Of a stretch of 45,926 nucleotides of DNA, positions 2,321-41,757 are shown one piece after another. Location: UHGV virus genome UHGV-0253013; one strand, 5' to 3'. A model generated the notes under the pieces. The model was not told the DNA's origin. It ran no database searches and saw only the letters and a program-made list of their open reading frames with translations. The translations under genes were made by a program, and so were the position numbers. The stretch's first letter is position 1; every line of letters starts with the position of its first letter. The stretch comes from a virus.

Positions 2321-2512
2321 ATGAAACATGAATATGACCGCAAACCAGCACGCGACATCGTACCTGGCGATATGATTTTCAACGTCAAGACGCGCCAGCC
2401 TGTTGCCGTTGATACGGTGTTCGTAGAGTCGAACGGTAAACTGGTTATCGAAGACGTAACAGGAAACGTTACCGCGTTCGGGCGTAAAGAGCTGGTTCTG
2501 GTGGCCAAATGA
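2321..2512 (+). CDS. hypothetical protein
   Basis: ORF with AGGAATTGAG upstream; stop overlaps the helicase start (ATGA). Confidence 0.4.
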   Translation: MKHEYDRKPARDIVPGDMIFNVKTRQPVAVDTVFVESNGKLVIEDVTGNVTAFGRKELVLVAK

Positions 2513-4974
2513 ATAAATTCACTAGAAGGCCTTATCAAAAGCTCATGACCTCGTTCATGCTGCAACACCCGCGCTGTAATATCTGGGCCAGTATGGGCAG
2601 CGGCAAGTGCCTGAAACGCGGGACTGAAGTTATTATGTTTGACGGTACGACCAAGAAAGTAGAAGACGTCATCGTCGGTGACGTGCTTATGGGGCCGGAT
2701 TCAACGCCTAGAAATGTACTGTCTCTCGGTAGAGGCCGGGAGATGATGTACGAGGTTAAACCGCGAAAAGGAGAGTCGTATACGGTCAACGAAAGCCATA
2801 TATTATCCCTGCGAACTACTACAGGGATCGCAAAAGGTTCATGGCCAGATGATACCGTTTTCGACATAAGCGTCCGCGACTGGCTTAAGTTGCCGAAATA
2901 TGTAACCGGGCCTAATGGGTATCTTAAGGGTTGGCGGGTACCTGTCGATTTTACAAGGAAAGAGCAGGACGAGGCTTTATTGCCTCCGTACCTTATGGGG
3001 TTATGGCTGGGCGACGGTACTTCGTCGTCTGGGGCCATAACATCAGGAGAGAACGAAAAGGAAATAAGGGCGTATCTTGAGTCGTACGCAGCACGTAATG
3101 GGATGCAAATACGAAAAGAAGGACTTACATGGAGTATATCTTACGGCAACACAGGTCATAAGAAGCACGGGTTTACACACGCGCTGAAATCGGCGGGTGT
3201 CCTGAACAATAAGCATATACCGCATAATTACAAATGCGGCGACCGGCGACAGCGTTTAGAATTGCTGGCGGGGCTTCTGGATAGTGATGGTTACTGCGAT
3301 TTGTCTAAAGCAGGTTTTGACTGGATTTCGGTAAGCGAGCGACTCGCTGATGATTTTTGCTATCTATGCCGTTCTCTTGGTTTCGCCGCTTACAAGAAGA
3401 AAACTCGTAAGCGTTGCGCAAACACTGATGTTTGGGGTGACTACTTTAGCGTATCAGTATCGGGCGATTTTTCTGAGGTACCTTTCGTGCGCGGACGCCA
3501 CCAGAATTTACCGAAGCGTAATATTAATAAGAACGTGCTTAACGTTGGGATAGAATCCATAACCCCGGTCGGCGTAGATGACTATTTTGGCTTCACTATC
3601 GACGGTGACAGTCGGTTTTTATTGGGGGACTTCACTGTCACGCACAATACAAGCTCAACGTTGTGGGCTCTCAACAGACTGTTCCGTAATGGGCAACTTA
3701 ATGACGACGACCGAGTGTTAATTCTGGCTCCTTTACGTGTTGCGTCCGGCACGTGGCCCGCGGAACAGGCACGTTGGAACTTCCCGTGTTTGCATGTTGT
3801 AGACGCAACTGGTTCAGAGAAGCGCCGCATCGCGGCGCTGGAGTCAGATGCCAACGTGGTGTGCACGAACTACGAAGTTATTGAGTGGCTGATTGACTAC
3901 TACGGCAAAGACGACTGGCCTTTTACGGTTATCGTTGCCGATGAAAGCACGAAGCTCAAATCATTCCGTAGCCGTTCCGGCGGCAGCAAGCGTGCAAAGG
4001 CGCTTAGCAAAGTGGCGTTCGGTAAGGTTAAGCGTTTCATCAACCTTACCGGTACGCCGTCGCCGAACGGCCTCAAAGACTTGTGGGGGCAGAACTGGTT
4101 TATCGACGGCGGAGAGCGCCTGGGGTCATCGTACACCGCATTCACAGACCGCTGGTTTAACTCGGTACAGAAAGGCAAATCAGCGATGGCACGTGAATAT
4201 CACGCACGCCCGGGCGCAGATAACGAGATTCACCAGAAGATGAAGGACATTAGTCTCACGATTGACGCCGCCGAGTGGTTTGGGTGTGAAGCGCCGATTA
4301 TCGTACCGGTCGAAATCGACCTGCCGAAGAAAGCGCGGCAGGCGTACATCGATATGGAGGAGAAGCTATTCGCGGAACTGGAGAGCGGAGAAGTTGAAGC
4401 GGCTAACGCCGCGGCGAAGACCTCAAAGTGCTTGCAGATTGCTTCCGGTGCCGTATATGTATCGGGGCCGGACGGCGAAGCAACGAAAGACTGGGAGAAA
4501 GTGCACGACACGAAACTTGATGCGCTCGAGTCGATTGTTGAGGAGTTACAGGGTGCGCCGTTACTGGTAGCCTATCAGTTCAAGCATGAACTGGAGCGCA
4601 TCCTTAAGCGATTCCCGCAAGCACAGGCATTTGCCAAAGGTGCTAAGGGTAATAAGCAGATGGAAGCGTGGAACCGTAGGGAGATACCTATGCTCCTGAT
4701 ACACCCAGCCTCCGCAGGCCACGGACTGTCGCTACAACACGGCGGACACCACATGGCCTTTATGAGTCAGGGGTGGAACCTGGAACATTATCTGCAGGTT
4801 ATCGAGCGTATAGGCCCAGTAAGGCAGATGCAATCCGGATACAAACGGTCTGTATTCATTTATCAAATAATAGCACGAGATACTCTTGATGAAGTTGTCG
4901 CCTCTCGTACAGACGAGAAAAGGTCTGTACAGGACGAACTACTTAATTATATGAAGCGCAGAGGTAAGAAATGA
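2509..4974 (+). CDS. SNF2/DEAD-like helicase, intein-containing
   Basis: Walker A MGSGK|...|TSS is split by the insert; downstream VIVADEST (DExx-like) and INLTGTPSPNGL (motif III-like). Confidence 0.8.
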   Translation: MNKFTRRPYQKLMTSFMLQHPRCNIWASMGSGKCLKRGTEVIMFDGTTKKVEDVIVGDVLMGPDSTPRNVLSLGRGREMMYEVKPRKGESYTVNESHILSLRTTTGIAKGSWPDDTVFDISVRDWLKLPKYVTGPNGYLKGWRVPVDFTRKEQDEALLPPYLMGLWLGDGTSSSGAITSGENEKEIRAYLESYAARNGMQIRKEGLTWSISYGNTGHKKHGFTHALKSAGVLNNKHIPHNYKCGDRRQRLELLAGLLDSDGYCDLSKAGFDWISVSERLADDFCYLCRSLGFAAYKKKTRKRCANTDVWGDYFSVSVSGDFSEVPFVRGRHQNLPKRNINKNVLNVGIESITPVGVDDYFGFTIDGDSRFLLGDFTVTHNTSSTLWALNRLFRNGQLNDDDRVLILAPLRVASGTWPAEQARWNFPCLHVVDATGSEKRRIAALESDANVVCTNYEVIEWLIDYYGKDDWPFTVIVADESTKLKSFRSRSGGSKRAKALSKVAFGKVKRFINLTGTPSPNGLKDLWGQNWFIDGGERLGSSYTAFTDRWFNSVQKGKSAMAREYHARPGADNEIHQKMKDISLTIDAAEWFGCEAPIIVPVEIDLPKKARQAYIDMEEKLFAELESGEVEAANAAAKTSKCLQIASGAVYVSGPDGEATKDWEKVHDTKLDALESIVEELQGAPLLVAYQFKHELERILKRFPQAQAFAKGAKGNKQMEAWNRREIPMLLIHPASAGHGLSLQHGGHHMAFMSQGWNLEHYLQVIERIGPVRQMQSGYKRSVFIYQIIARDTLDEVVASRTDEKRSVQDELLNYMKRRGKK
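2608..3648 (+). mobile_element. intein (347 aa) with LAGLIDADG homing endonuclease domain, inserted in the helicase P-loop
   Basis: Starts with Cys directly after GSGK; ends ...VTHN followed by Thr (+1 nucleophile). Block B-like NESHILSL. Two LAGLIDADG motifs: LMGLWLGDG and LAGLLDSDG. Excision restores GSGKTSS. Confidence 0.8.
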
Positions 4975-15094: not shown

Positions 15095-15202
15095 TCTTTA
15101 ATCCTTTGGTTAAGAGGTTGTTGGTTAAAGAGAAATGCACCAGGCGGTAACCAACCGCTTTTCGTGCGCGACACTAGGTGCAAAATTATTCTAACACACT
15201 AC

Positions 15203-15231
15203 TTGCACACCCCAATATAATAGGGTACTAT
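15203..15231 (+). promoter_or_regulatory. sigma70-like promoter, class A (TTGCAC-N17-TACTAT) with embedded AATAGGGTACTATT inverted repeat
   Basis: TTGCAC at 15203-15208, 17-nt spacer, TACTAT at 15226-15231; about 40 nt upstream of the ATG at 15272. Near-identical copies at 25976, 36521 (-) and 37566 (-). Confidence 0.5.
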
Positions 15232-15271
15232 TCACTTACACCAACGTTATTAACTTAAATAAGGAATTAAA

Positions 15272-15663: not shown

Positions 15664-16794
15664 ATGGCCCAGAAGAAAATAACCGACGAACAGTTACAGG
15701 AAGAATTGAACGCCGGGATGAAGAATGTAGACATCGCCCGTAAATACGGCATCTCAGACCGCGTTATTCGTATCCGTAAAGCAAAACTAGCTAAGAAAGG
15801 CGTAGGCCACGGACGCGACGTTAGCCACCTCGTACCAGACGGCTACAAGATTAAGGGCACGTCGTCACTTGTGGACGAGTTCGGCAACACTAAGTTGCAA
15901 TGGGTTAAGACCGACACCGACGCCGAACGTCAGGTCGAGTTGATGAAAGCCGTAATAGAAGGTATGAAGTCAGAGATTACGCCGGTTGCGCCTGTTAAAG
16001 CGACTCGCGCCAAACGCAACGATAAACTACTCAATCTTTACACGGTATCTGATTTTCATCTCGGTATGCTGGCTTGGGCCGACGAGAGCGGCGACGACTG
16101 GGATATGAAGATTGCGGAAGACCTGTTCTCCCGTTGGTTCGATGCTGCATTTCAGAAAGCACCAGATGCAGCAACTGGGGTTATTAACCTGCTGGGTGAT
16201 TTCGCGCACTTCGATAGTCTGGTTGCCGTTACACCCGCAAGCGGTCACGCCCTTGACGCTGACACTCGCTATCAGAAACTGGTGCGCTACATGATTCGTA
16301 TGGTCCGCCGTGTGGTGGATATGGCTCTGGTTAAGCATAAAAATGTTCGCTTGCTTATCGTACAAGGGAACCACGACGAAAGCGGAATGATTTGGTTGGC
16401 GGAGATGTTCAGTACGCTGTACGACAACGAGCCGCGTGTGTTCGTAGATACGTCGCCGGATGTCTACAAGATGGTGCAACATGGCAAAACGACTCTGTTC
16501 TTTACACACGGGCATAAATGCCGGTTTGAGGTGGTCGAACCCATTATGATAGCTAAGTTCAGAAAAGCATTTGGCGAAAGCGAGTACAGTTACGCGCATG
16601 TAGGACATCTCCACCATCAAAAGATTGTAGAAAGTAGGAATATGGTAGTGGAACAGCATCGCACTCTCGCGGCGAAAGATGCATATGCTTCTCGCGGCGG
16701 GTGGATGTCTAAGAGGTCCGCTAATGTCATAACCTATAGTTCAGAGTTCGGGGAAGTAGGTAGGCTTTCAATCTCACCGGAGATGCTAAGATGA
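15664..16794 (+). CDS. HTH domain fused to a calcineurin-like metallophosphoesterase (SbcD/Mre11-like or class III phosphodiesterase-like)
   Basis: N-terminal DIARKYGISDRVIRIRKAKL HTH-like; MPE motifs SDFHLG, GDFAHFD, QGNHDE, FTHGH, HVGHLHH in canonical order. Confidence 0.65.
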   Translation: MAQKKITDEQLQEELNAGMKNVDIARKYGISDRVIRIRKAKLAKKGVGHGRDVSHLVPDGYKIKGTSSLVDEFGNTKLQWVKTDTDAERQVELMKAVIEGMKSEITPVAPVKATRAKRNDKLLNLYTVSDFHLGMLAWADESGDDWDMKIAEDLFSRWFDAAFQKAPDAATGVINLLGDFAHFDSLVAVTPASGHALDADTRYQKLVRYMIRMVRRVVDMALVKHKNVRLLIVQGNHDESGMIWLAEMFSTLYDNEPRVFVDTSPDVYKMVQHGKTTLFFTHGHKCRFEVVEPIMIAKFRKAFGESEYSYAHVGHLHHQKIVESRNMVVEQHRTLAAKDAYASRGGWMSKRSANVITYSSEFGEVGRLSISPEMLR

Positions 16795-17261
16795 AGTATC
16801 TTGATGTTTCAAAACAATTTAAATACTGCCCTGAGACGGGGCAGGTTACCAGGATATCTACTGGTGCTGAGGTTGGTACGGTTGGTGTAAGAGGTTATTT
16901 GTGCTGCGGTATGGGTGGTAAAACAGTGTATGTCCACCGCATAGCATGGTGTCTTTATAATAAATGCAACTTAGACAGGAAAACTCAAATAGACCACATA
17001 AACCATAACAGGCTAGACAATAGGATAGAAAATCTACGCGCCACCGACAATACAGGGAACAGTAAAAATAAAACTATGCGAAAGATAAATAAATCCGGGG
17101 CCACAGGTGTAAGTTTCCACAAAGCCGCGGGTAAGTGGCGCGCGTTTATAAAAGTTAACTACAAACAAGTACATTTAGGGCTTTACGACGATTTTGATGT
17201 AGCGGTTGCCGCGCGTAAAGCCGCTGAAAGTAAATACGGTTTCCATGAAAACCATGAGTAG
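16791..17261 (+). CDS. HNH homing endonuclease with AP2-like domain (paralog 2 of 3)
   Basis: QIDHINHNRLDNRIENLRAT HNH motif; C-terminal SGATGVSFHKAAGKWRAFIKV...YGFHENHE closely parallels the 1270..1788 and 41257..41757 products. Confidence 0.8.
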   Translation: MKYLDVSKQFKYCPETGQVTRISTGAEVGTVGVRGYLCCGMGGKTVYVHRIAWCLYNKCNLDRKTQIDHINHNRLDNRIENLRATDNTGNSKNKTMRKINKSGATGVSFHKAAGKWRAFIKVNYKQVHLGLYDDFDVAVAARKAAESKYGFHENHE

Positions 17262-17274
17262 GGGAAAGTGATTT

Positions 17275-17505
17275 ATGACTTCAAAATACAACCGCACAAT
17301 GACAAACGCTCACGGCAGCACTATGACAGTAGACGTTTATGATGTGCTACGTGCTTTCGACATCCGCGACCCTGCGTTACAGCACGCATTGAAGAAGCTA
17401 TTGTGTATGGGCCTTCGCGGACACAAGGACACCGGAACAGACTTAGCGGAAGCAATTGAAAGCCTGGAGAAGTTACGGGAGTATAGAAGCAATATCGACG
17501 AGTAA
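17275..17505 (+). CDS. hypothetical protein
   Basis: ORF after the HNH gene, followed by a terminator. Confidence 0.4.
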   Translation: MTSKYNRTMTNAHGSTMTVDVYDVLRAFDIRDPALQHALKKLLCMGLRGHKDTGTDLAEAIESLEKLREYRSNIDE

Positions 17506-23505: not shown

Positions 23506-23587
23506 AGTCAGTATGTCCCCTGGACGTTTGAATCCGGGCCACCCGGATTTACATGTCAAGAATAAATTATTCCAACATGCAAGGCAA

Positions 23588-23851
23588 CTATTCCAGAATA
23601 TTCCTCACGTAATCCTGCAACATGAACACTTTCAGTCTCAGTTGCCGTACACATTCGGCATTCTGAACGTCGATAGCTAAATCCTCGTCAGCGTCACTAC
23701 TTGGCGGTGCCAGTTTGCACGGAGGCTGCATCATCGTCGTATCCGGGGATGGAATTGGCGTTTGCGACGGCGCGGGACTTGAGCAGGACGCGAGCATCGT
23801 CGAAAGTGCACACGCTGCGACCAGGCGTTTTAATGTACTTAACGACTTCAC
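23588..23851 (-). CDS. o-spanin (outer-membrane lipoprotein, Rz1-like)
   Basis: Signal peptide with lipobox LASC, Pro-rich mature region; starts inside the i-spanin gene in another frame and extends past its stop. Confidence 0.55.
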   Translation of the reverse strand: MKSLSTLKRLVAACALSTMLASCSSPAPSQTPIPSPDTTMMQPPCKLAPPSSDADEDLAIDVQNAECVRQLRLKVFMLQDYVRNILE

Positions 23852-24083
23852 GGGTAATCACCTCTGATTTCGTCTTGCCTTCGTTGTCAGCGGCGGCGGC
23901 CTTCGATTCATCCTGCTGCTGCCGTTGTGTTTTCTTCACTAACTCAGCCTGTGCTTTCTGCTGTTGCTGCGAAACTAGATTCGCCCGGCCTTCGTTCCAG
24001 CCGCTGCGATACTGGTATATGCCGTGGGCGTAAGCCAGGATGGTGAAACATGCCCACGCTACGAAAGTTGCTTTAAGATTCAT
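23697..24083 (-). CDS. i-spanin (Rz-like)
   Basis: N-terminal TM segment ATFVAWACFTILAYAHGIY followed by a Gln/Lys-rich coiled coil. Confidence 0.6.
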   Translation of the reverse strand: MNLKATFVAWACFTILAYAHGIYQYRSGWNEGRANLVSQQQQKAQAELVKKTQRQQQDESKAAAADNEGKTKSEVITREVVKYIKTPGRSVCTFDDARVLLKSRAVANANSIPGYDDDAASVQTGTAK

Positions 24084-24307
24084 GTTTCCCCTTTCTCGAT
24101 AAGTAAAGCCCCGCCATAAAGCGGGGCGCTAGTCCTTATCATTTAAACATAGAAACGGCGTAATCTCAGTAAACCAGTTACTTTTTACACAAGCAATAGA
24201 CTATGGCCCTTCCGAACGCGTCAGCGTAACTACACTCAGGACTTACGTCCCGCTCCGTTACCTGCCCGCGCCGCGGTCGCTTGTTCATACTTCACAAGCT
24301 CAGGTGG

Positions 24308-24350
24308 AGCTTAGCACATTTTTAGTGAAAAGTCAACTATTCGAATAGTT
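24308..24350 (-). promoter_or_regulatory. candidate promoter (TTGACT-N17-TAAGCT, minus strand) with a perfect 16-bp palindrome over the -35
   Basis: Plus-strand AACTATTCGAATAGTT (24335-24350) is a perfect palindrome of GAATAGTT half-sites; reverse complement gives TTGACT, 17 nt, TAAGCT. Confidence 0.35.
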
Positions 24351-24398
24351 TATTCCAACATTTACAATTGAGCGGAATAACTGGAATAATCACAGACA

Positions 24399-24424
24399 TT
24401 AAAAAAGCCCCTTTCGGGGCCTCT
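24399..24424 (-). terminator. rho-independent terminator after the Ig-like gene
   Basis: Minus-strand GCCCCGAAAGGGGC hairpin followed by TTTTTT; just below the stop at 24427. Confidence 0.6.
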
Positions 24425-24426
24425 TA

Positions 24427-24888
24427 TCATTCTGGCTTAGTGACCTTCGCCGCTTTACTCACAGCCTCCACTCCACCGGCATCGGTGACTTTAACAAAGT
24501 ATTCACCTACCGCATTATCCATCAGAGACAAAGCCTCTTCGGGTGCGTTTACTACTTCCTTCCCGTCTTTGTACCAGGTCAGCGTATATGGTGCTTTACC
24601 AGCCTTAACTTCGACAGTGATAGTTGCGCTGCCGTCAGTGAGTTCAGTGTCTTTCGGTTGCACAGAGAAATACACATCGCCTGCGTCCGCCAGATACGGA
24701 ATTTCATAAAGCATGCCCGCCACCGGTAGCGCAATACCGGTTTTATCTGCAAACGGCATATCGTCTACTGGTGTACCGAGTACACTCTCATCTTCAATAA
24801 ACACCACGTTCTCGCCAGAGCCAGACACGCGGGCGTACTGGACTACGCGACGCGACGGTACATCAGTAACTTTGAAAAAGCCCATCAT
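24427..24888 (-). CDS. Ig-like domain protein (paralog of 21215..21556)
   Basis: C-terminal KAPYTLTWYKDGKEVVNA...GEYFVKV shares the APY..WYKD Ig-like signature. Confidence 0.5.
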   Translation of the reverse strand: MMGFFKVTDVPSRRVVQYARVSGSGENVVFIEDESVLGTPVDDMPFADKTGIALPVAGMLYEIPYLADAGDVYFSVQPKDTELTDGSATITVEVKAGKAPYTLTWYKDGKEVVNAPEEALSLMDNAVGEYFVKVTDAGGVEAVSKAAKVTKPE

Positions 24889-25931
24889 TATTCCCCTTTC
24901 AGATAATCAGCAACACGTTTATCGAGTTCCGCCATCTGCTTAAGCGTGAGCGGATTCCCGAAACCATCTACAGATATTACGCGAAACTCTTCCGGTGATA
25001 TACCGCTGTTACGGAAAATCTTACCGCGAACAGGGCCGAGCGCCTGGTCCTGGAACCACGCCGGTTGTTGTTTCAGGAACTCGTAATAAGTGGTGTCAGC
25101 GCTTACCTGAGTACCGCCGTCCGCACCTTTAGCCGCTCGTTTTGCGCCCTTATCGAGGAAGTCGAACTCCGAACTGATTACAGGCGCAGTGGTGCTTCTG
25201 CACCCAAAATGGGCCGGTGGCATCGGCCCCTTACCGATTTCCCACGTCATTCCATCTCGGGCCCTGCAAATCGTGCTCGTACGGCTGTCCAGCGTCGACA
25301 CCCACTCGTACTTCTCGATGATGTCGTCGTTCTGGCGGTATGTCTCGTTGCGTGCTTCGTTGGATACGTGGGACAGCGCGGTGCGGATTACCGTCGCAGC
25401 GTTACGCTCAGAGATGTCCGCCAGCCCACCAGCGCCTACGACATTCTTAACAATCTGCCGTGTTGTCTGGCCTTGTACAAAACCCATCTTAACGCCGGTT
25501 ACAAGGCGCGATACTTCTGTTTCACCCCAACCTGACATCAGTTTAGTGAAGTCAACGGGCTTGTCACTTGGCGATAAGGGTTGAAACTCGGCTGCAGCCC
25601 ACACCTGTTCGGCGGTAGGCGTAACAAATTCCGCGTTAACGTTAGCGGTCAGTGTCTTTACGTTCCACTCGGCCTCATACGCCGCCAGTTCCTTAAGGTC
25701 TTCTGTCAGCTTTGTTTGCCAGTCACCTGTAAGCCCTGTCAATGCTTCTTCCAGGTCACGTAACAGTTTATTCAGCCGCGCAGTGCTGCGGCCGTCGTCG
25801 CCGAACAACAGCACCCGCCGTTTGATTTCGTCCCGCATCTCCTGAATGAACGGCATGAGGTCTTTCACTTCGCCGGATGCGGCGCGTTGCAACCATATCT
25901 GGTGGCTGATTAGTGATGTCAGTAAGCTCAT
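24888..25931 (-). CDS. head morphogenesis protein (SPP1 gp7 / Mu F-like)
   Basis: Position directly after the portal region. Start moved to the ATG at 25931 preceded by AGGAGGA (track start 25991). Confidence 0.6.
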   Translation of the reverse strand: MSLLTSLISHQIWLQRAASGEVKDLMPFIQEMRDEIKRRVLLFGDDGRSTARLNKLLRDLEEALTGLTGDWQTKLTEDLKELAAYEAEWNVKTLTANVNAEFVTPTAEQVWAAAEFQPLSPSDKPVDFTKLMSGWGETEVSRLVTGVKMGFVQGQTTRQIVKNVVGAGGLADISERNAATVIRTALSHVSNEARNETYRQNDDIIEKYEWVSTLDSRTSTICRARDGMTWEIGKGPMPPAHFGCRSTTAPVISSEFDFLDKGAKRAAKGADGGTQVSADTTYYEFLKQQPAWFQDQALGPVRGKIFRNSGISPEEFRVISVDGFGNPLTLKQMAELDKRVADYLKGE

Positions 25932-25975
25932 AAGTCCTCCTGTAGTATCGCCAGTGTACCGCATAAAAATAATAT

Positions 25976-26004
25976 TTGCAGACACCAACATAATAGGGTA
26001 CTAT
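25976..26004 (+). promoter_or_regulatory. sigma70-like promoter, class A (TTGCAG-N17-TACTAT)
   Basis: TTGCAG at 25976-25981, 17-nt spacer containing ATAATAGGG, TACTAT at 25999-26004; upstream of the ATG at 26032. Confidence 0.5.
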
Positions 26005-26031
26005 TCAGTTAACTTAAACAGGAGACGAAAG

Positions 26032-26193
26032 ATGAAATTAGTAAAAAGAATTACCGTAAACATTAACACAAGTTCGAAAAACGGAGACAAACGTAAGTTC
26101 CGCCGTAAAATGCGCCAAATCGCTAAACTCGACTACATCTTCGGGGAAACGATTGCACTCGCAGTAGGCGCCGCACGCAACTGGAGGCGTTAA
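26032..26193 (+). CDS. small basic protein (53 aa)
   Basis: ATG at 26032 preceded by GGAG; first gene of the rightward insert upstream of the YhhQ-like gene. Confidence 0.4.
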   Translation: MKLVKRITVNINTSSKNGDKRKFRRKMRQIAKLDYIFGETIALAVGAARNWRR

Positions 26194-26194
26194 T

Positions 26195-26659
26195 ATGATG
26201 TACTTTGTGTACATAGGCGCGATATGCGCCGCCAACTTTTCGGTATCCGTTTTCGGTCCGTGGGCAACTCCTATAAACGCTTTTGTTCTTATCGGTCTTG
26301 ATTTTGTGATAAGAGATAAGTTGCATGAAAGAATCGGTGTGCGAAAAATATTTATACTCATAGTTGTTGCGGGGGTAATAAGTTACGCCATTAACCCTGC
26401 AACGGGTAAGATTGCCTCTGCAAGTGTGGTGGCATTCGCATTTGCTGCGTTGGTAGACGCGATTGTGTACCAGTTGCTTATTAACCAAAAGTGGCTAGTA
26501 AAGTCTAACGTCAGTAACACAGCGGCATCCGCTGTTGATTCGTTTATTTTTCCTTTAATCGCCTTTGGGGCTTTCATGCCGCTTGTAGTTCTCGGGCAAT
26601 TCGCCGCTAAAGTTATCGGGGGCGCTACCTGGTCACTCCTGTTGAGGAAAGTTAAATGA
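26195..26659 (+). CDS. yhhQ: YhhQ-like membrane protein (7-deazaguanine precursor transporter family), short form
   Basis: Multi-TM protein; segments KSNVSNTAASAVDSFIFPLIAFG and ASVVAFAFAALVDAIVYQLL resemble remembered E. coli YhhQ motifs (no alignment run); adjacent to a DpdA-like gene. Confidence 0.55.
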   Translation: MMYFVYIGAICAANFSVSVFGPWATPINAFVLIGLDFVIRDKLHERIGVRKIFILIVVAGVISYAINPATGKIASASVVAFAFAALVDAIVYQLLINQKWLVKSNVSNTAASAVDSFIFPLIAFGAFMPLVVLGQFAAKVIGGATWSLLLRKVK

Positions 26660-27390
26660 CAGTACACTACCACGGCGGCCCTATTTGGGGTGGGGGTGAA
26701 CTTATAAAAGCGTTGTACAGAGGGGGAGGTGCTCTGGTGTCCTATGCGCGTCCAGACCAGATACGAAAGATAGCCGCCATGAGATGTAAATTAGTACTGG
26801 ATAACGGTGCTTTTTCAACGTGGAAGAAAGCCCCGGAAAACATAGACTGGAGTGCACACTGGGCAGGATATTATGATTTTGTTGGTGAGTGGTTCAGCCG
26901 TATTGAGTGGTTCATAATACCTGACGTTATCGAAGGTTCCGAGGAGGAAAACGACGCGTTAATAGAAACTGTGCCGGATTGGTTAATGCCCAAGGCTGTC
27001 CCGGTGTGGCATAGTGACGAGAGTATAAGAAGACTGATAAAACTATGCAGGAAGTTCCCTCGAGTTGCTATAGGCTGCTGCGGCCCACACAGGGCTATAC
27101 GTTCTAAGTCGTGGGAAAAAAGAATGGATCAGGCGTTTAATGCGGTTTACAGAAACCGGAAACTAGATGTAAAACTACACGGACTTAGAATGCTGGATGG
27201 AAGGGCGTTAAGCCGCTACCCTTTTGATAGCGCAGACAGCACAAACGTAGCTATAAATGTACCAAAAACGAAGGCAAGACTGCCTAACATAACCGATAAA
27301 CTACACCGCACAGCTATAATGCGGCACACGATAGAAATGGTGAAACCACCCTCGGTTGGTGAATGGTTATTTAAAACTAAGGCCCCATAA
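26656..27390 (+). CDS. dpdA: DpdA-like transglycosylase (candidate 7-deazaguanine DNA-modifying enzyme)
   Basis: 244 aa, translationally coupled to the YhhQ-like gene. Call rests on a remembered resemblance to short phage DpdA/TGT-like proteins (YHGGPIWGG, LVLDNGAFS, FIIPDVIEGSEEEND) and on context. Confidence 0.5.
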   Translation: MTVHYHGGPIWGGGELIKALYRGGGALVSYARPDQIRKIAAMRCKLVLDNGAFSTWKKAPENIDWSAHWAGYYDFVGEWFSRIEWFIIPDVIEGSEEENDALIETVPDWLMPKAVPVWHSDESIRRLIKLCRKFPRVAIGCCGPHRAIRSKSWEKRMDQAFNAVYRNRKLDVKLHGLRMLDGRALSRYPFDSADSTNVAINVPKTKARLPNITDKLHRTAIMRHTIEMVKPPSVGEWLFKTKAP

Positions 27391-27406
27391 CGGGGCCTTT
27401 TTCTTT
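27379..27406. terminator. bidirectional terminator between the DpdA-like and portal genes
   Basis: AAGGCCCC-ATAA-CGGGGCCTT hairpin followed by TTTCTTT; both convergent stops lie in or beside it. Confidence 0.55.
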
Positions 27407-28874
27407 ACTCCTGCTGTTGTGCCGACTGCGGAATCTCCCCCTCAACCTGAGTAACAGCACCTAACGGCATCGGCGCGTCTTCGATAGCGTTCTGAATGTC
27501 CTCGTCAGTCCAGTCAATTACACCTGCCTTGCGCAACGCAGCATAATAAGCGGTCGCTGGCAGCAGACCGGCGTTAATATCTGCCATCCACTGAGCACGG
27601 TCCTGCGCTGTCATCGGTTGCAGGAAGAACTCCATATTCAGCTTGAACTCAATCTCTGTGTCTCCACGCAATCCTAGCATCGCCGCTACCCAGCGCAACG
27701 CATCAGTATACGCCATGCTTACGTTACGTGCGATTGTCGCCATAACGGATGTATCAGCACCGCGTTGCAGACGGGCTGATTCGGCGGTGATTTGCTGCGT
27801 CGGGGTGATAAGCTGAGCGCCAATCTGAATGGCCTGATTCTCTTTATCCAGCATGTTCTGTTTGGCGAGGTTATTTTCTCCCGCCTGAACCAGAAACGCA
27901 TTGCCGCCGTAGCCAATGTTATGGCCTGAGCGCGACCCCATGCGCACGCCGTGAGGGTTGGCTTCTTTCCACTGTTCCATGCTCATGTTCTCGCCGGGGG
28001 CTATGAACAGAGTGGGCTGGCCTACAACGAAGCTGGACTCCTCATTGTCTGCGCTGTTGCGGAAATGCCCAATATTAAGCTCAGCCAACGGCAGCAAAGG
28101 TGCATCGTCAATGGTTGCATCGTTGTTGCTTGCACCAATGAACGTGAACGGGATTTTGCCGCGTAACTGTTCGCCAAGTTCCGGGAATATTTCGATTACT
28201 TCACCCTGAGCGCAACCTTCAGCGTCGAAGCGGTAAATGCGCTGGCGGTAGCGCCCGTCAATCAAATCTAGAACGCGGTATTGCTCACCGAACTTTGTTT
28301 CGAACTCTGCACCCGGTTCTGAGTATTCCCATACCTCACGCAACACAACCATAGTCACGCGGTTAACTGAACCGACGCGAGTCAGTCGCCAGTTGATGAT
28401 GTTCTCTGCGGTATAGAATACGATGACCGGGTTTAATAATCCCGCGTTCTGTTCGGCTGCCGTTGCTGCGGCGGTCTCTGGCGCATCAACCAGCAATCCA
28501 CCACGACCAACCGAGTCAATCTCCATTAGCGTATCCTGCGCGTGCTGCCACAGCCCGACACCGGAACCGTCCGTATTGCGCAACAGGTATTCCAGTTCAG
28601 GAGGGATAATCTGTTCAGGGTCTTTGCGCATCACTGACCCCACCACCCCCGCCAGGGTACGTTTAGTGAAGTTGTAGCAGATAGCACCATTCTCGTATTC
28701 TTCCTGTCGCTGTGCTGCGTAGGTCGGGTCAGGCTCGTTCTTCCCGACGTTGCGCAGGTAGCGAATAAGGTCGCCCTCCAGCGAGTGGCGTACCTTCTGC
28801 CATTTATCGAAGTGGTGCAGCCATTCCCGGTGTTTTGTCTTAACACCCTGATTCTGACCGTTCATAGTTAACAT
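27405..28874 (-). CDS. portal protein
   Basis: 489 aa ORF on the structural strand directly after the terminase region; size and synteny. Confidence 0.65.
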   Translation of the reverse strand: MLTMNGQNQGVKTKHREWLHHFDKWQKVRHSLEGDLIRYLRNVGKNEPDPTYAAQRQEEYENGAICYNFTKRTLAGVVGSVMRKDPEQIIPPELEYLLRNTDGSGVGLWQHAQDTLMEIDSVGRGGLLVDAPETAAATAAEQNAGLLNPVIVFYTAENIINWRLTRVGSVNRVTMVVLREVWEYSEPGAEFETKFGEQYRVLDLIDGRYRQRIYRFDAEGCAQGEVIEIFPELGEQLRGKIPFTFIGASNNDATIDDAPLLPLAELNIGHFRNSADNEESSFVVGQPTLFIAPGENMSMEQWKEANPHGVRMGSRSGHNIGYGGNAFLVQAGENNLAKQNMLDKENQAIQIGAQLITPTQQITAESARLQRGADTSVMATIARNVSMAYTDALRWVAAMLGLRGDTEIEFKLNMEFFLQPMTAQDRAQWMADINAGLLPATAYYAALRKAGVIDWTDEDIQNAIEDAPMPLGAVTQVEGEIPQSAQQQE

Positions 28875-29029
28875 AGATATAGACCCTCGGGTATGGGTGT
28901 CAAAAGCCTAATAAAAATTAGGTTGCAAGTCACCAGAAACTCGCTACTGCGAGTTTTACTTGCACCGGGCTGGCGGTCAATATATCTTATCATTAAGCAG
29001 ATAAAAATGAATTGTTGGAGGGGATACGT

Positions 29030-30409
29030 ATGGGCAGAAGAATAACTGAAGAAGAAATCAAAAACCGGTTAGCTATGTTTGGGTTTAAATTGGTTGAATA
29101 TGGCGGGTCGCAAGTAGCAAAATCCGTTATAAAATGCCCCAATGGACACGAGGAATTGAAGTCGCTTAACACCTTCACGGCTAATGGTGTGCGCTGTAAA
29201 TCTTGCGCTGCTGCTGAAAGGAGTCTGGCGTACAGCACCGACGAGACCGAAGCGAGAAGGATAGTCGAGGACATGGGGTATTCGCTGATAAAATACGGCG
29301 GCAATTTGTACCGCAAAAAATCTACCGTCCAATGTGCAAACGGTCATGTGCGCGAAGTTCGCATAGGAAATATGGTTAAGGGTCATCGCTGCAAAAAGTG
29401 CGTGGCGGAAGCAATGTGTTTGGCGGAAGACGTGGTTAACACCAGACTACCAGATGGGGTCAAGATGGATTTTTACTGCGGCAACACGCGGGGGCTTAGT
29501 CTATTTTCTTGCGAAAAAGGGCACTCGTGGTCCGCATCCGTGAATAACGTAGTGTCTCAACAAACGAAATGTCCTAAATGCTCTAATAACGTAAGTGGTA
29601 TGGAAAAAGAAGTTCTGTCGTTTATCCGCGGAGTATACCCAGGTGTTGTCAATACGTCCGTACGGTCGCTTATCTCGCCGTTTGAGCTGGACATAGTATT
29701 GCCGGAGATTAAGGTGGCCATAGAATTTAACGGCATCTATTGGCATTCCGAGGCGAATGGTAAACACCGTAACTACCACATAAATAAGAGATTAGCGTGT
29801 GAGAAACTTGGGTACAGGCTGATAAGCGTACGAAGCGACCTTTGGTTAGAGAAGCGAGAGCATGTTGAGCGCATTTTGAAGAACGCGGTAGGGGTACGTA
29901 CTGTGTCTATTTTTGCCAGAAAATGTCGTGTGGTAGAGATAGCCAACAAAGACGCATTCCAGTTCTGTGAGGACAATCACATCCAGGGTGGGACAAAGGC
30001 TACAAAAGCGTATGCATTACTTCACGCTGGTGAGGTGGTTGCGGTAATGACTTTGGTACATTGGCGCCGCAAGGACTCATGGGAACTGGTGCGATATTGC
30101 ACCAGTACGTCCGTGCCCGGTGGCCTAAGTAAGCTGTGGAAACATGTGACGCAAGAAAACAACATTAAGCAAGCGTTCACTTATACCGACCGTGACCTTT
30201 TCACCGGTGCATCTTACGCAGAAGCTGGGTTTATATTTGATAGCTGCTCCGTAGGGTTTCGCGTTGTCGTAGGAACTCGTACAGAATCCCGCCAGAAATG
30301 GGGCAAAGCTCCCGAGGGTCTTACCCAAACAGAGTGGTACGAACGAGAAAAAGTGTCGCGCATATGGGATAGCGGTCAGGATAAGTGGGAATGGGTTAAA
30401 GGGGCATAA
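29030..30409 (+). CDS. putative homing endonuclease: three Zn-ribbon-like repeats plus DUF559/Vsr-like nuclease domain
   Basis: ATG at 29030 after GGAGGGG. Repeats CPNGHEELKS...CKSC, CANGHVREV...CKKC, CEKGHSWS...CPKC; then ELDIVLPEIKVAIEFNGIYWHSE; opposite strand between portal and terminase. Confidence 0.5.
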   Translation: MGRRITEEEIKNRLAMFGFKLVEYGGSQVAKSVIKCPNGHEELKSLNTFTANGVRCKSCAAAERSLAYSTDETEARRIVEDMGYSLIKYGGNLYRKKSTVQCANGHVREVRIGNMVKGHRCKKCVAEAMCLAEDVVNTRLPDGVKMDFYCGNTRGLSLFSCEKGHSWSASVNNVVSQQTKCPKCSNNVSGMEKEVLSFIRGVYPGVVNTSVRSLISPFELDIVLPEIKVAIEFNGIYWHSEANGKHRNYHINKRLACEKLGYRLISVRSDLWLEKREHVERILKNAVGVRTVSIFARKCRVVEIANKDAFQFCEDNHIQGGTKATKAYALLHAGEVVAVMTLVHWRRKDSWELVRYCTSTSVPGGLSKLWKHVTQENNIKQAFTYTDRDLFTGASYAEAGFIFDSCSVGFRVVVGTRTESRQKWGKAPEGLTQTEWYEREKVSRIWDSGQDKWEWVKGA

Positions 30410-37540: not shown

Positions 37541-37565
37541 TCCTCTGTCTCATTTCGATAAGTGA

Positions 37566-37594
37566 ATAGTACCCTATTATATTGGGGTGTGCAA
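37566..37594 (-). promoter_or_regulatory. sigma70-like promoter, class A (TTGCAC-N17-TACTAT, minus strand)
   Basis: Minus-strand read CTTGCACACCCCAATATAATAGGGTACTATTCACTTA, matching the 15203 copy over about 35 nt. Confidence 0.55.
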
Positions 37595-41256: not shown

Positions 41257-41757
41257 ATGGATACCAAATACATTAAAACGTCTATGTTCAGTTATGAACC
41301 AGAAACTGGAGTACTTCGATGGGCTGTAAAGAGGGGCAAGGTTAAACCAGGAGACGAGGCCGGATGTTTGGCCAAAACATGCGGGTATAGAATGGTTAGA
41401 CTAGACGGTGTGTTAACCCCGGTACACAGGATAGTATGGGATATGCTTAATCCTACGGATAAACTACAAGAAGGTGACGAAATAGACCATATAGACCACG
41501 ATAAACTTAATAACCGAGCTTCTAATCTTAGAAAAGTTTGCCACCTATCAAATATGCACAACAGGTCAAAGCACAAGAACAACACATCAGGTGTAACCGG
41601 CGTGTCTTGGGTGGGGAAGCAAAATAAGTGGTATGCGTACATATACAAAAAAGGTACAAATTACAACTTAGGATACTTTTCAAAATTTGAAGATGCTGTT
41701 TTCGCAAGAAAAGAAGCAGAAATAAAACTCAACTTCCATAAAAATCACGGAGAATGA
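41257..41757 (+). CDS. HNH homing endonuclease with AP2-like domain (paralog 3 of 3)
   Basis: EIDHIDHDKLNNRASNLRKV HNH motif; C-terminal SGVTGVSW...YFSKFEDAVFARKEAE...NFHKNHGE parallels the other two paralogs. Confidence 0.8.
   Translation: MDTKYIKTSMFSYEPETGVLRWAVKRGKVKPGDEAGCLAKTCGYRMVRLDGVLTPVHRIVWDMLNPTDKLQEGDEIDHIDHDKLNNRASNLRKVCHLSNMHNRSKHKNNTSGVTGVSWVGKQNKWYAYIYKKGTNYNLGYFSKFEDAVFARKEAEIKLNFHKNHGE

Follow-up and report, generated by a model that had tools for sequence, protein, structure and literature searches.

Why would a phage encode a putative base-inserting enzyme next to a putative base importer and nothing with which to make the base? This question is raised by the virus genome UHGV-0253013 (45,926 nt; the window, by which we mean the whole stretch of DNA that was analysed). 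Here, a cassette of three rightward genes encodes a DpdA-type transglycosylase family member, a member of the VUT/COG1738 (YhhQ) family of membrane proteins, and a small basic protein. A previous reading made from the DNA letters alone (the sequence-only reading) had taken the cassette for a DNA modification system that salvages its precursor from the host or the medium. Our analysis supports this reading: the profile matches of both larger proteins are positive, and the complete genome holds no precursor-synthesis genes. We put the probability that the cassette brings about a salvage-based 7-deazaguanine modification of the phage DNA at roughly 60%.

The three genes of the cassette are as follows.

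26032-26193, + strand: very basic protein of 53 amino acids (aa), first gene of the operon, with AGGAG 7 nt upstream
26195-26659, + strand: VUT/COG1738 (YhhQ-family) protein of 154 aa with a Pfam Vut_1 match, putative 7-deazapurine importer
26656-27390, + strand: DpdA-like TIM-barrel guanine transglycosylase of 244 aa, from the singleton gamma-proteobacterial phage clade

All three open reading frames (ORFs) were found on the + strand where the sequence-only reading had placed them, and they form a tightly coupled rightward operon. The TAA of the 53-aa ORF ends 1 nt before the ATG at 26195, the stop codon of the VUT gene overlaps the ATG at 26656 as ATGA, and ribosome-binding sites (AGGAG/GGAGG/GAGGA) lie ahead of all three starts.

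Family membership of the cassette proteins and absence of precursor-synthesis genes

The 244-aa protein had been likened to phage DpdA, and it is indeed a member of the DpdA-type transglycosylase family; a transglycosylase activity and the identity of the inserted base are predicted from its sequence. It matches the phrog_887 profile ('queuine tRNA-ribosyltransferase') at 9.5e-84. Because it is 67% identical to the protein of phage PEAT2, 65% identical to that of HK106, and 59.8% identical (over 94% of the query) to that of Salmonella phage 7-11, it belongs to the gamma-proteobacterial singleton DpdA cluster (PMC6884629). An hhalign comparison of its family with the profile of the CAjan DpdA family gave a probability of 93.8% (E 1.7e-7), and deletion of dpdA in phage CAjan abolishes dPreQ0 (PMC7544227). 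The AlphaFold2 (AF2) model of the protein has a mean predicted local distance difference test score (pLDDT) of 91.3 and a predicted template modelling score (pTM) of 0.89; in the BFVD viral structure library, 31 entries matched at E<=1e-3, mostly with phage TGT/DpdA ('queuine tRNA-ribosyltransferase') annotations and including a protein of Vibrio phage nt-1.

The residues expected to carry out catalysis are in place. D49 (in LDNGAF) aligns with the general base D63 of the CAjan enzyme and D194 (in DSADS) with its nucleophile D206, the roles of both catalytic Asp residues being taken from previous work (PMC7544227, PMC10164549). Four further positions pair with CAjan residues, i.e., F53 with F67, H119 with H132, G140 with G153, and L177 with F189. 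D49, F53, H119, G140, L177, and D194 are invariant among 31 family members and, in the AF2 model, map to successive strands, at the C-terminal end of each.

The 154-aa protein is a member of the VUT/COG1738 family, in agreement with the resemblance to YhhQ proposed earlier. It scores 36.9 bits against Pfam Vut_1 (PF02592; cut-off, 27.2) and matches phrog_4899 at 2.5e-37, and in a BLASTP comparison it is 25% identical to E. coli YhhQ over the core (E 1e-5). Aligned end to end with E. coli YhhQ, it differs by 67 residues that are accounted for by trimmed termini and loops; six helices are evident from hydropathy and from the AF2 model (pLDDT 88), and N14, P26, R40, A76, S77, D115, F119, and K139 are invariant in the alignment of the phage VUT copies with E. 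coli YhhQ. The short length is the normal phage form and no anomaly, because all 120 of the 120 closest VUT homologues have 153-173 aa, each with PF02592, and the CAjan homologue, which carries a preQ0 transporter annotation, has 159 aa. Scores against the equivalog models of queuosine-precursor transporters stayed below their cut-offs (TIGR00697, 25.9 bits versus 50.95; NF008406, 20.3 versus 252), and functional equivalence to such a transporter is putative.

The third protein is as basic as described (isoelectric point 11.8, 15 K/R), and its C-terminal half is hydrophobic. Its only match is a weak one to phrog_34194 (6e-4). It is conserved (85% aa identity) in Kagunavirus-type cassettes only, and the gene was not found at the PEAT2-like, 7-11, or prophage loci; any role that it has in the modification is putative.

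The sequence-only reading had seen no folE-, queD-, queE-, or queC-like genes, and we found none either: phmmer searches with the CAjan enzymes against the 808 six-frame ORFs of the window returned nothing at E<=10, whereas the CAjan queries for DpdA and the YhhQ-like protein, searched together with them, recovered both cassette genes. The window shares ~90% nucleotide identity with Kagunavirus (Guernseyvirinae) phages of E. coli. Because its collinearity with phage Bas75 extends over the whole of that circular genome, we judge it to be a complete, circularly permuted Kagunavirus genome of 45.9 kb. The segments of the window that have no counterpart in Bas75 are explained by the cassette, four HNH homing endonucleases, a helicase intein, and divergent tail genes. 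Since the genome is complete and all of its specific segments are explained, the absence of precursor genes applies genome-wide.

A 76-aa protein encoded at 17275-17505 (+) shares homology (E 8.8e-13) with part of gp40 of CAjan, the product of an uncharacterised gene within the CAjan 7-deazaguanine cluster. It was considered as a second deazaguanine-related gene product and dropped, as it is encoded by a backbone gene that is present in the cassette-free Bas75, which makes a connection with modification doubtful.

Proposed function and rival explanations

We propose that the enzyme would flip out guanine in double-stranded phage DNA after replication and replace it by the double displacement described for TGT and DpdA (PMC10164549, PMC7544227). 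In this reaction, D194 would attack C1' and guanine would be released; D49 would deprotonate the incoming 7-deazaguanine, most likely preQ0, which would then become attached to the sugar. Because the phage lacks FolE/QueD/QueE/QueC, this base would have to derive from the pool of the host queuosine pathway. There is precedent for this source: in E. coli, the DpdA of phage 9g on its own uses the host pool to put dPreQ0 into plasmid DNA (PMC6884629, PMC7544227), and the residual signal in CAjan folE/queC mutants was attributed to ~12-fold lower incorporation of host-derived preQ0 (PMC7544227). The co-transcribed VUT protein most likely supplements the pool through uptake of preQ0-type bases from the medium. 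The outcome would be a partial, sequence context-dependent replacement of G, by which restriction and Cas9 cleavage would be blunted.

Several points weigh against this proposal. The E. coli host already has its own YhhQ. Deletion of the YhhQ homologue of CAjan left modification unaffected (PMC7544227), and specificity within COG1738 is heterogeneous (PMC5372724). As for the enzyme, the hhalign alignment puts E93 in the column of the base-binding Asp (D105 in CAjan; D130 in bacterial DpdA). The structural Zn site CXCX2CX22H, defined in previous work and conserved in TGT and bacterial DpdA (PMC10164549), was not found in the 244-aa protein; its only cysteines are C44, C131, C141, and C142, and only ~50 residues follow the nucleophile D194. 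Searches of the protein in Pfam (including PF01702), NCBIfam, PADLOC, and PDB sequences (phmmer and a 31-sequence profile) also gave no match. The validated CAjan DpdA and the 7-11 DpdA likewise match no Pfam/NCBIfam family, and because the validated CAjan enzyme behaves alike, we regard these null searches as uninformative. A size of 244 aa is no anomaly, because the 7-11 DpdA has 234 aa. Finally, dADG amounts to only 50 per 10^6 nt (~0.02% of G) in the DNA of phage 7-11, from which dPreQ0 is absent (PMC6884629). Phage 7-11, which has no VUT gene, is the only close relative with measured DNA, and because its DNA is barely modified and carries dADG, the modification in the window's phage may be marginal or the base may be a different one.

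Across the singleton family, the residue in the column of E93 varies: it is E in this phage, G in the 7-11 type, and otherwise A. The neighbouring P89-D90 and G94 show no variation in the family, and D90 lies three residues before E93, just after strand 4. We observe that the E/G/A column together with the invariant P89-D90 and G94 may signal a shifted or altered base pocket.

These features bear on the alternative in which enzyme and target are as proposed but the imported base is not preQ0; preQ1, queuine, CDG/ADG, or some other analogue of a purine would be inserted, and the pocket would be altered to match. The presence of E, G, or A in the column aligned with the base-binding Asp and the lack of the Zn subdomain would fit this alternative, as would the finding of dADG rather than dPreQ0 in 7-11 DNA (PMC6884629), the predicted differences among COG1738 subfamilies for preQ0, preQ1, and queuine (PMC5372724), and the failure of the window's VUT protein to reach the cut-offs of the NCBIfam equivalog models of preQ0/preQ1 transporters. 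However, the invariant D90 could itself be a displaced base-binding Asp, the deazaguanine pocket retains H119, F53, and L177, and the cassette carries no extra tailoring enzyme; overall, we consider a base other than preQ0 unlikely, if the strongest of the alternatives. An RNA target appears more doubtful again; according to this idea, host or phage tRNA would receive the base supplied by the transporter, and queuosine-family modification and translation would be altered during infection.

Somewhat less probable still is that the cassette is a moron for conflict with other phages or host defences, acting either by superinfection exclusion through the membrane protein or by a Cap10-like attachment of deazaguanine to protein. 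PADLOC matched 0 of the 3 cassette proteins, there is no QueC-like partner of the Cap9 kind, and the coupling of VUT with DpdA across lytic phages favours a pair for base supply and base insertion. The loss of the Zn site, the small size of the proteins, and the barely modified DNA of 7-11 (PMC6884629) could also suggest decaying or inactive passenger genes. The cassette is, however, under strong purifying selection. Between two cassette lineages (the window and contig L005), the ratio of nonsynonymous to synonymous substitution rates (dN/dS) is 0.026 for DpdA, 0.046 for VUT, and 0.18 for the 53-aa gene, at a nucleotide divergence of ~18%. Moreover, the 1359-nt block is free of indels in seven copies, and the catalytic and family-invariant residues are all retained. 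We therefore regard decay as very improbable and favour salvage-based modification of the phage DNA.

Boundaries, slots, and distribution of the cassette

The rightward orientation of the cassette between leftward head-morphogenesis and portal genes was borne out by the phrog and Pfam matches of both flanks. Two locations, here referred to as slot A and slot B, are relevant, and the cassette of the window occupies slot B.

24389-24415, no strand assigned: collapsed slot A, between spanin-like and Hoc-like decoration genes
24888-25931, - strand: head-morphogenesis gene (Mu F-like), left flank of slot B; phrog_241 2.2e-154, Pfam Phage_Mu_F
25966-26011, + strand: promoter-like 46-nt repeat, left slot boundary; candidate -35 TTTGCA/TTGCAG at 25975-25981, candidate -10 TACTAT at 25999-26004
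27379-27399, both strands: bidirectional intrinsic terminator (AAGGCCCC-loop-GGGGCCTT), right slot boundary, from the terminator scan
27405-28874, - strand: portal gene, right flank of slot B; phrog_145 2.7e-146, DUF4055

The longest ORF of the head-morphogenesis gene, 24888-25991 (-), opens at an upstream ATG at 25991. Because the protein has 347 aa in relatives, homology ends at 25932, and a GGAGG site is present, the true start is most likely the ATG at 25931 (347 aa), and the gene would therefore be clear of the promoter-like repeat.

The repeat is 28-46 nt long with the core ATAATAGGGTACTATTCA and is present in three copies in the window, at 15193-15238 (+), 25966-26011 (+), and 37561-37588 (-), where 0 would be expected by chance; the repeat search placed the copies at 15209 (+), 25982 (+), and 37561 (-). 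The same motif lies ahead of the rightward cargo at both slots of phage fBC-Eco01, and one of these copies is annotated as a PHIRE phage promoter. In a scan for the sigma-70 consensus, no promoter was flagged ahead of the cassette. Thus, the claim that the cassette has a promoter of its own stands in part: the three-copy repeat and the PHIRE-annotated copy in a relative argue for it, but the sigma-70 consensus match stayed below threshold. We also observed that the repeat precedes rightward cassettes nested in leftward late operons as well as the presumed early region and that it is kept at the equivalent slots of metagenomic contigs. The terminator, which had also been proposed, is confirmed as a motif, with a stem of 8-9 bp that includes 6 G-C pairs and with runs of T on either strand; it belongs to the terminator repeat family of the genome (D2/D5).

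The homology between the window and L005, a contig with the cassette in slot A, starts at the promoter-like repeat and stops at the terminator. L005 4426-5306 corresponds to window 23508-24388 and L005 6737-8253 to window 24416-25932, with the cassette between. Slot A (between the spanin and decoration protein genes) holds the cassette in L005, L006, and L019-L023, and slot B (between the head-morphogenesis and portal genes) holds it in the window, L015, and L018. Cassettes are 95-97% and 92-94.5% identical within the slot groups and 81-84% identical between them. In cassette-free relatives, the slots are empty or occupied by unrelated small genes; where the cassette is in one slot, the other slot is likewise empty or contains small unrelated genes, for instance for a PF27050 protein or a 173-aa product annotated as 'sliding clamp'. 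More generally, the two slots (window 24389-24415 and 25932-27404) appear as Kagunavirus cargo sites that are bounded by the promoter repeat and a terminator and that flank the decoration and head-morphogenesis genes.

The G+C content of the cassette is 45.6% versus 50.1% for the genome and 54% for the cassette flanks, and 0 of 224 related GenBank records cover the cassette. The best explanation is that it is a horizontally acquired, self-contained accessory operon in a variable slot of a Kagunavirus genome. The exact window proteins are found in public assemblies; their 90% cluster has 107 members, none of them from NCBI, and the long contigs listed for this cluster are mostly 42-45 kb. The three-gene cassette is restricted to uncultured relatives. 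When the cassette was sought among GenBank phages and an identical prophage copy in E. coli genomes, the best matches reached 67% protein identity and ~67-69% DNA identity.

The two larger genes have a wider distribution. A VUT gene lies directly upstream of dpdA where DpdA is 94, 79, 67, and 42% identical to that of the window, and the order is reversed in an Acinetobacter phage copy with a 33% identical DpdA. The VUT-DpdA pair is carried by unrelated phage backbones, and several copies adjoin primase or replication genes; in PEAT2-like phages, the pair follows a primase gene. DpdA occurs without VUT in phage 7-11 and in lambdoid prophages. Two E. coli prophages (L008 and L009) carry lone DpdA homologues, 65% identical, between DUF551 and integrase genes in the lambdoid accessory region, and a DNA search of 5426 complete E. 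coli genomes recovered homologues in 79 of them.

Going beyond salvage-based modification as such, we tentatively speculate that the VUT-coupled, Zn-free DpdA, with a pocket that would be remodelled (E/G column and invariant D90), could be a purely salvage-driven device that inserts whichever 7-deazapurine the importer supplies, the shield then being dependent on precursors in the gut or medium. In the same speculative vein, the whole unit could be a promoter-to-terminator cartridge that is swapped between the two Kagunavirus slots by recombination at shared repeats.

Known systems, significance, and genome setting

Hutinet et al. described 76 DpdA-only phages in 2019, suggested that these use host preQ0 or uptake, reported YhhQ homologues in some of them, and flagged the singleton DpdA clade as possibly diverged (PMC6884629). 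The salvage idea is thus already published for DpdA-only phages, and the gene arrangement is known in other phages. What is new here is the Kagunavirus host genus, the recurrent VUT-DpdA operon with the 53-aa gene, the two promoter-terminator slots, the lack of a Zn site, and an atypical column in the base pocket.

The clade of the 244-aa protein is shared by Salmonella phage 7-11 (gp032) and by the DpdA-only phages of group 3, and 7-11 also lacks genes for preQ0 or G+ synthesis (PMC6884629); its host has the full queuosine pathway. In 7-11, a podovirus-type phage of 90 kb, no VUT gene adjoins dpdA, whereas the window has an operon with VUT and the 53-aa gene in a 46-kb Kagunavirus; position 93 is G in 7-11 and E in the window. 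The PEAT2 locus of Pectobacterium and those of its uncultured relatives share the order of the two genes and their overlap, with DpdA 67-79% and VUT 69% identical; however, the PEAT2-type module lies in the replication module and has no 53-aa first gene, whereas that of the window lies in a head-module slot. The CAjan cluster (PMC7544227) likewise combines DpdA with a compact YhhQ-like protein in a phage of E. coli. In contrast to the window, which has no synthesis genes, CAjan makes its own preQ0 (FolE/QueD/QueE/QueC) and replaces ~25-32% of G, and its DpdA (DpdA1; 306 aa) falls in another sequence cluster than the 244-aa protein.

The distance to the bacterial proteins is larger. Compared with bacterial DpdA (the Dpd system of S. 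Montevideo, PDB 7UI4; PMC10164549), identity is 13%, with 413 aa versus 244 aa in the window, and unlike bacterial DpdA, the 244-aa protein lacks an Ins8/Zn subdomain, is not partnered by a DpdB ATPase, and has no PADLOC match. Neither phmmer nor the profile search gave a sequence match of the 244-aa protein to 7UI4, and no ATPase is encoded in the cassette. E. coli YhhQ (COG1738; PMC5372724) shares the Pfam family and the six helices with the window's VUT protein and has 221 aa versus 154 aa.

The value of the locus lies in its being a tractable test case rather than a surprise. Kagunaviruses are small, genetically tractable E. coli phages, and a cassette with a transglycosylase and a transporter only offers a clean test system, which bears on the questions left from 2019 of whether DNA modification really takes place in DpdA-only phages, which base is used, and where this base comes from. 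Because cassette-free isolates (Bas75, in which the slot is empty) and host mutants in the queuosine pathway and in yhhQ exist, gain and loss experiments are straightforward. A high sensitivity to restriction-modification systems has been reported for Kagunaviruses (PMC11990801). Partial 7-deazaguanine substitution changes the behaviour of DNA toward restriction, Cas9, and nanopores and is therefore relevant to phage therapy and sequencing; a modified phage would also be open to attack by defences that depend on modification, e.g., GrwAB and the Dag glycosylases.

A distant VUT-like gene was encountered in phage mEp021 (L011). At 2968-4235, this gene, with six predicted transmembrane segments and ~30% identity, overlaps a gene for a 252-aa protein annotated as a cytosine methyltransferase, and an adenine methyltransferase gene lies upstream; the locus may be a further DNA-modification module that is linked to a transporter. 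The 252-aa protein was considered as a cryptic DpdA and rejected, with an hhalign probability of 0.1% and no Pfam match; its gene lies downstream of the VUT-like one.

Four free-standing homing-endonuclease genes of the HNH type are present in the window, three of them with AP2-like domains, and Bas75 lacks them.

1270-1788, + strand: HNH homing-endonuclease gene
16791-17261, + strand: HNH homing-endonuclease gene
29012-30409, + strand: HNH homing-endonuclease gene
41257-41757, + strand: HNH homing-endonuclease gene

One of these genes separates the portal gene from the large terminase gene, another is nested in the exonuclease cassette, and the load of such genes is unusually high for a 46-kb genome. 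The gene for an SNF2-type helicase (2509-4974, +) encodes 821 aa compared with 474 aa in Bas75, an enlargement due to an intein (Hom_end-associated Hint, 2.4e-21, and a LAGLIDADG domain). The head-morphogenesis gene of L015 is similarly enlarged (645 aa).

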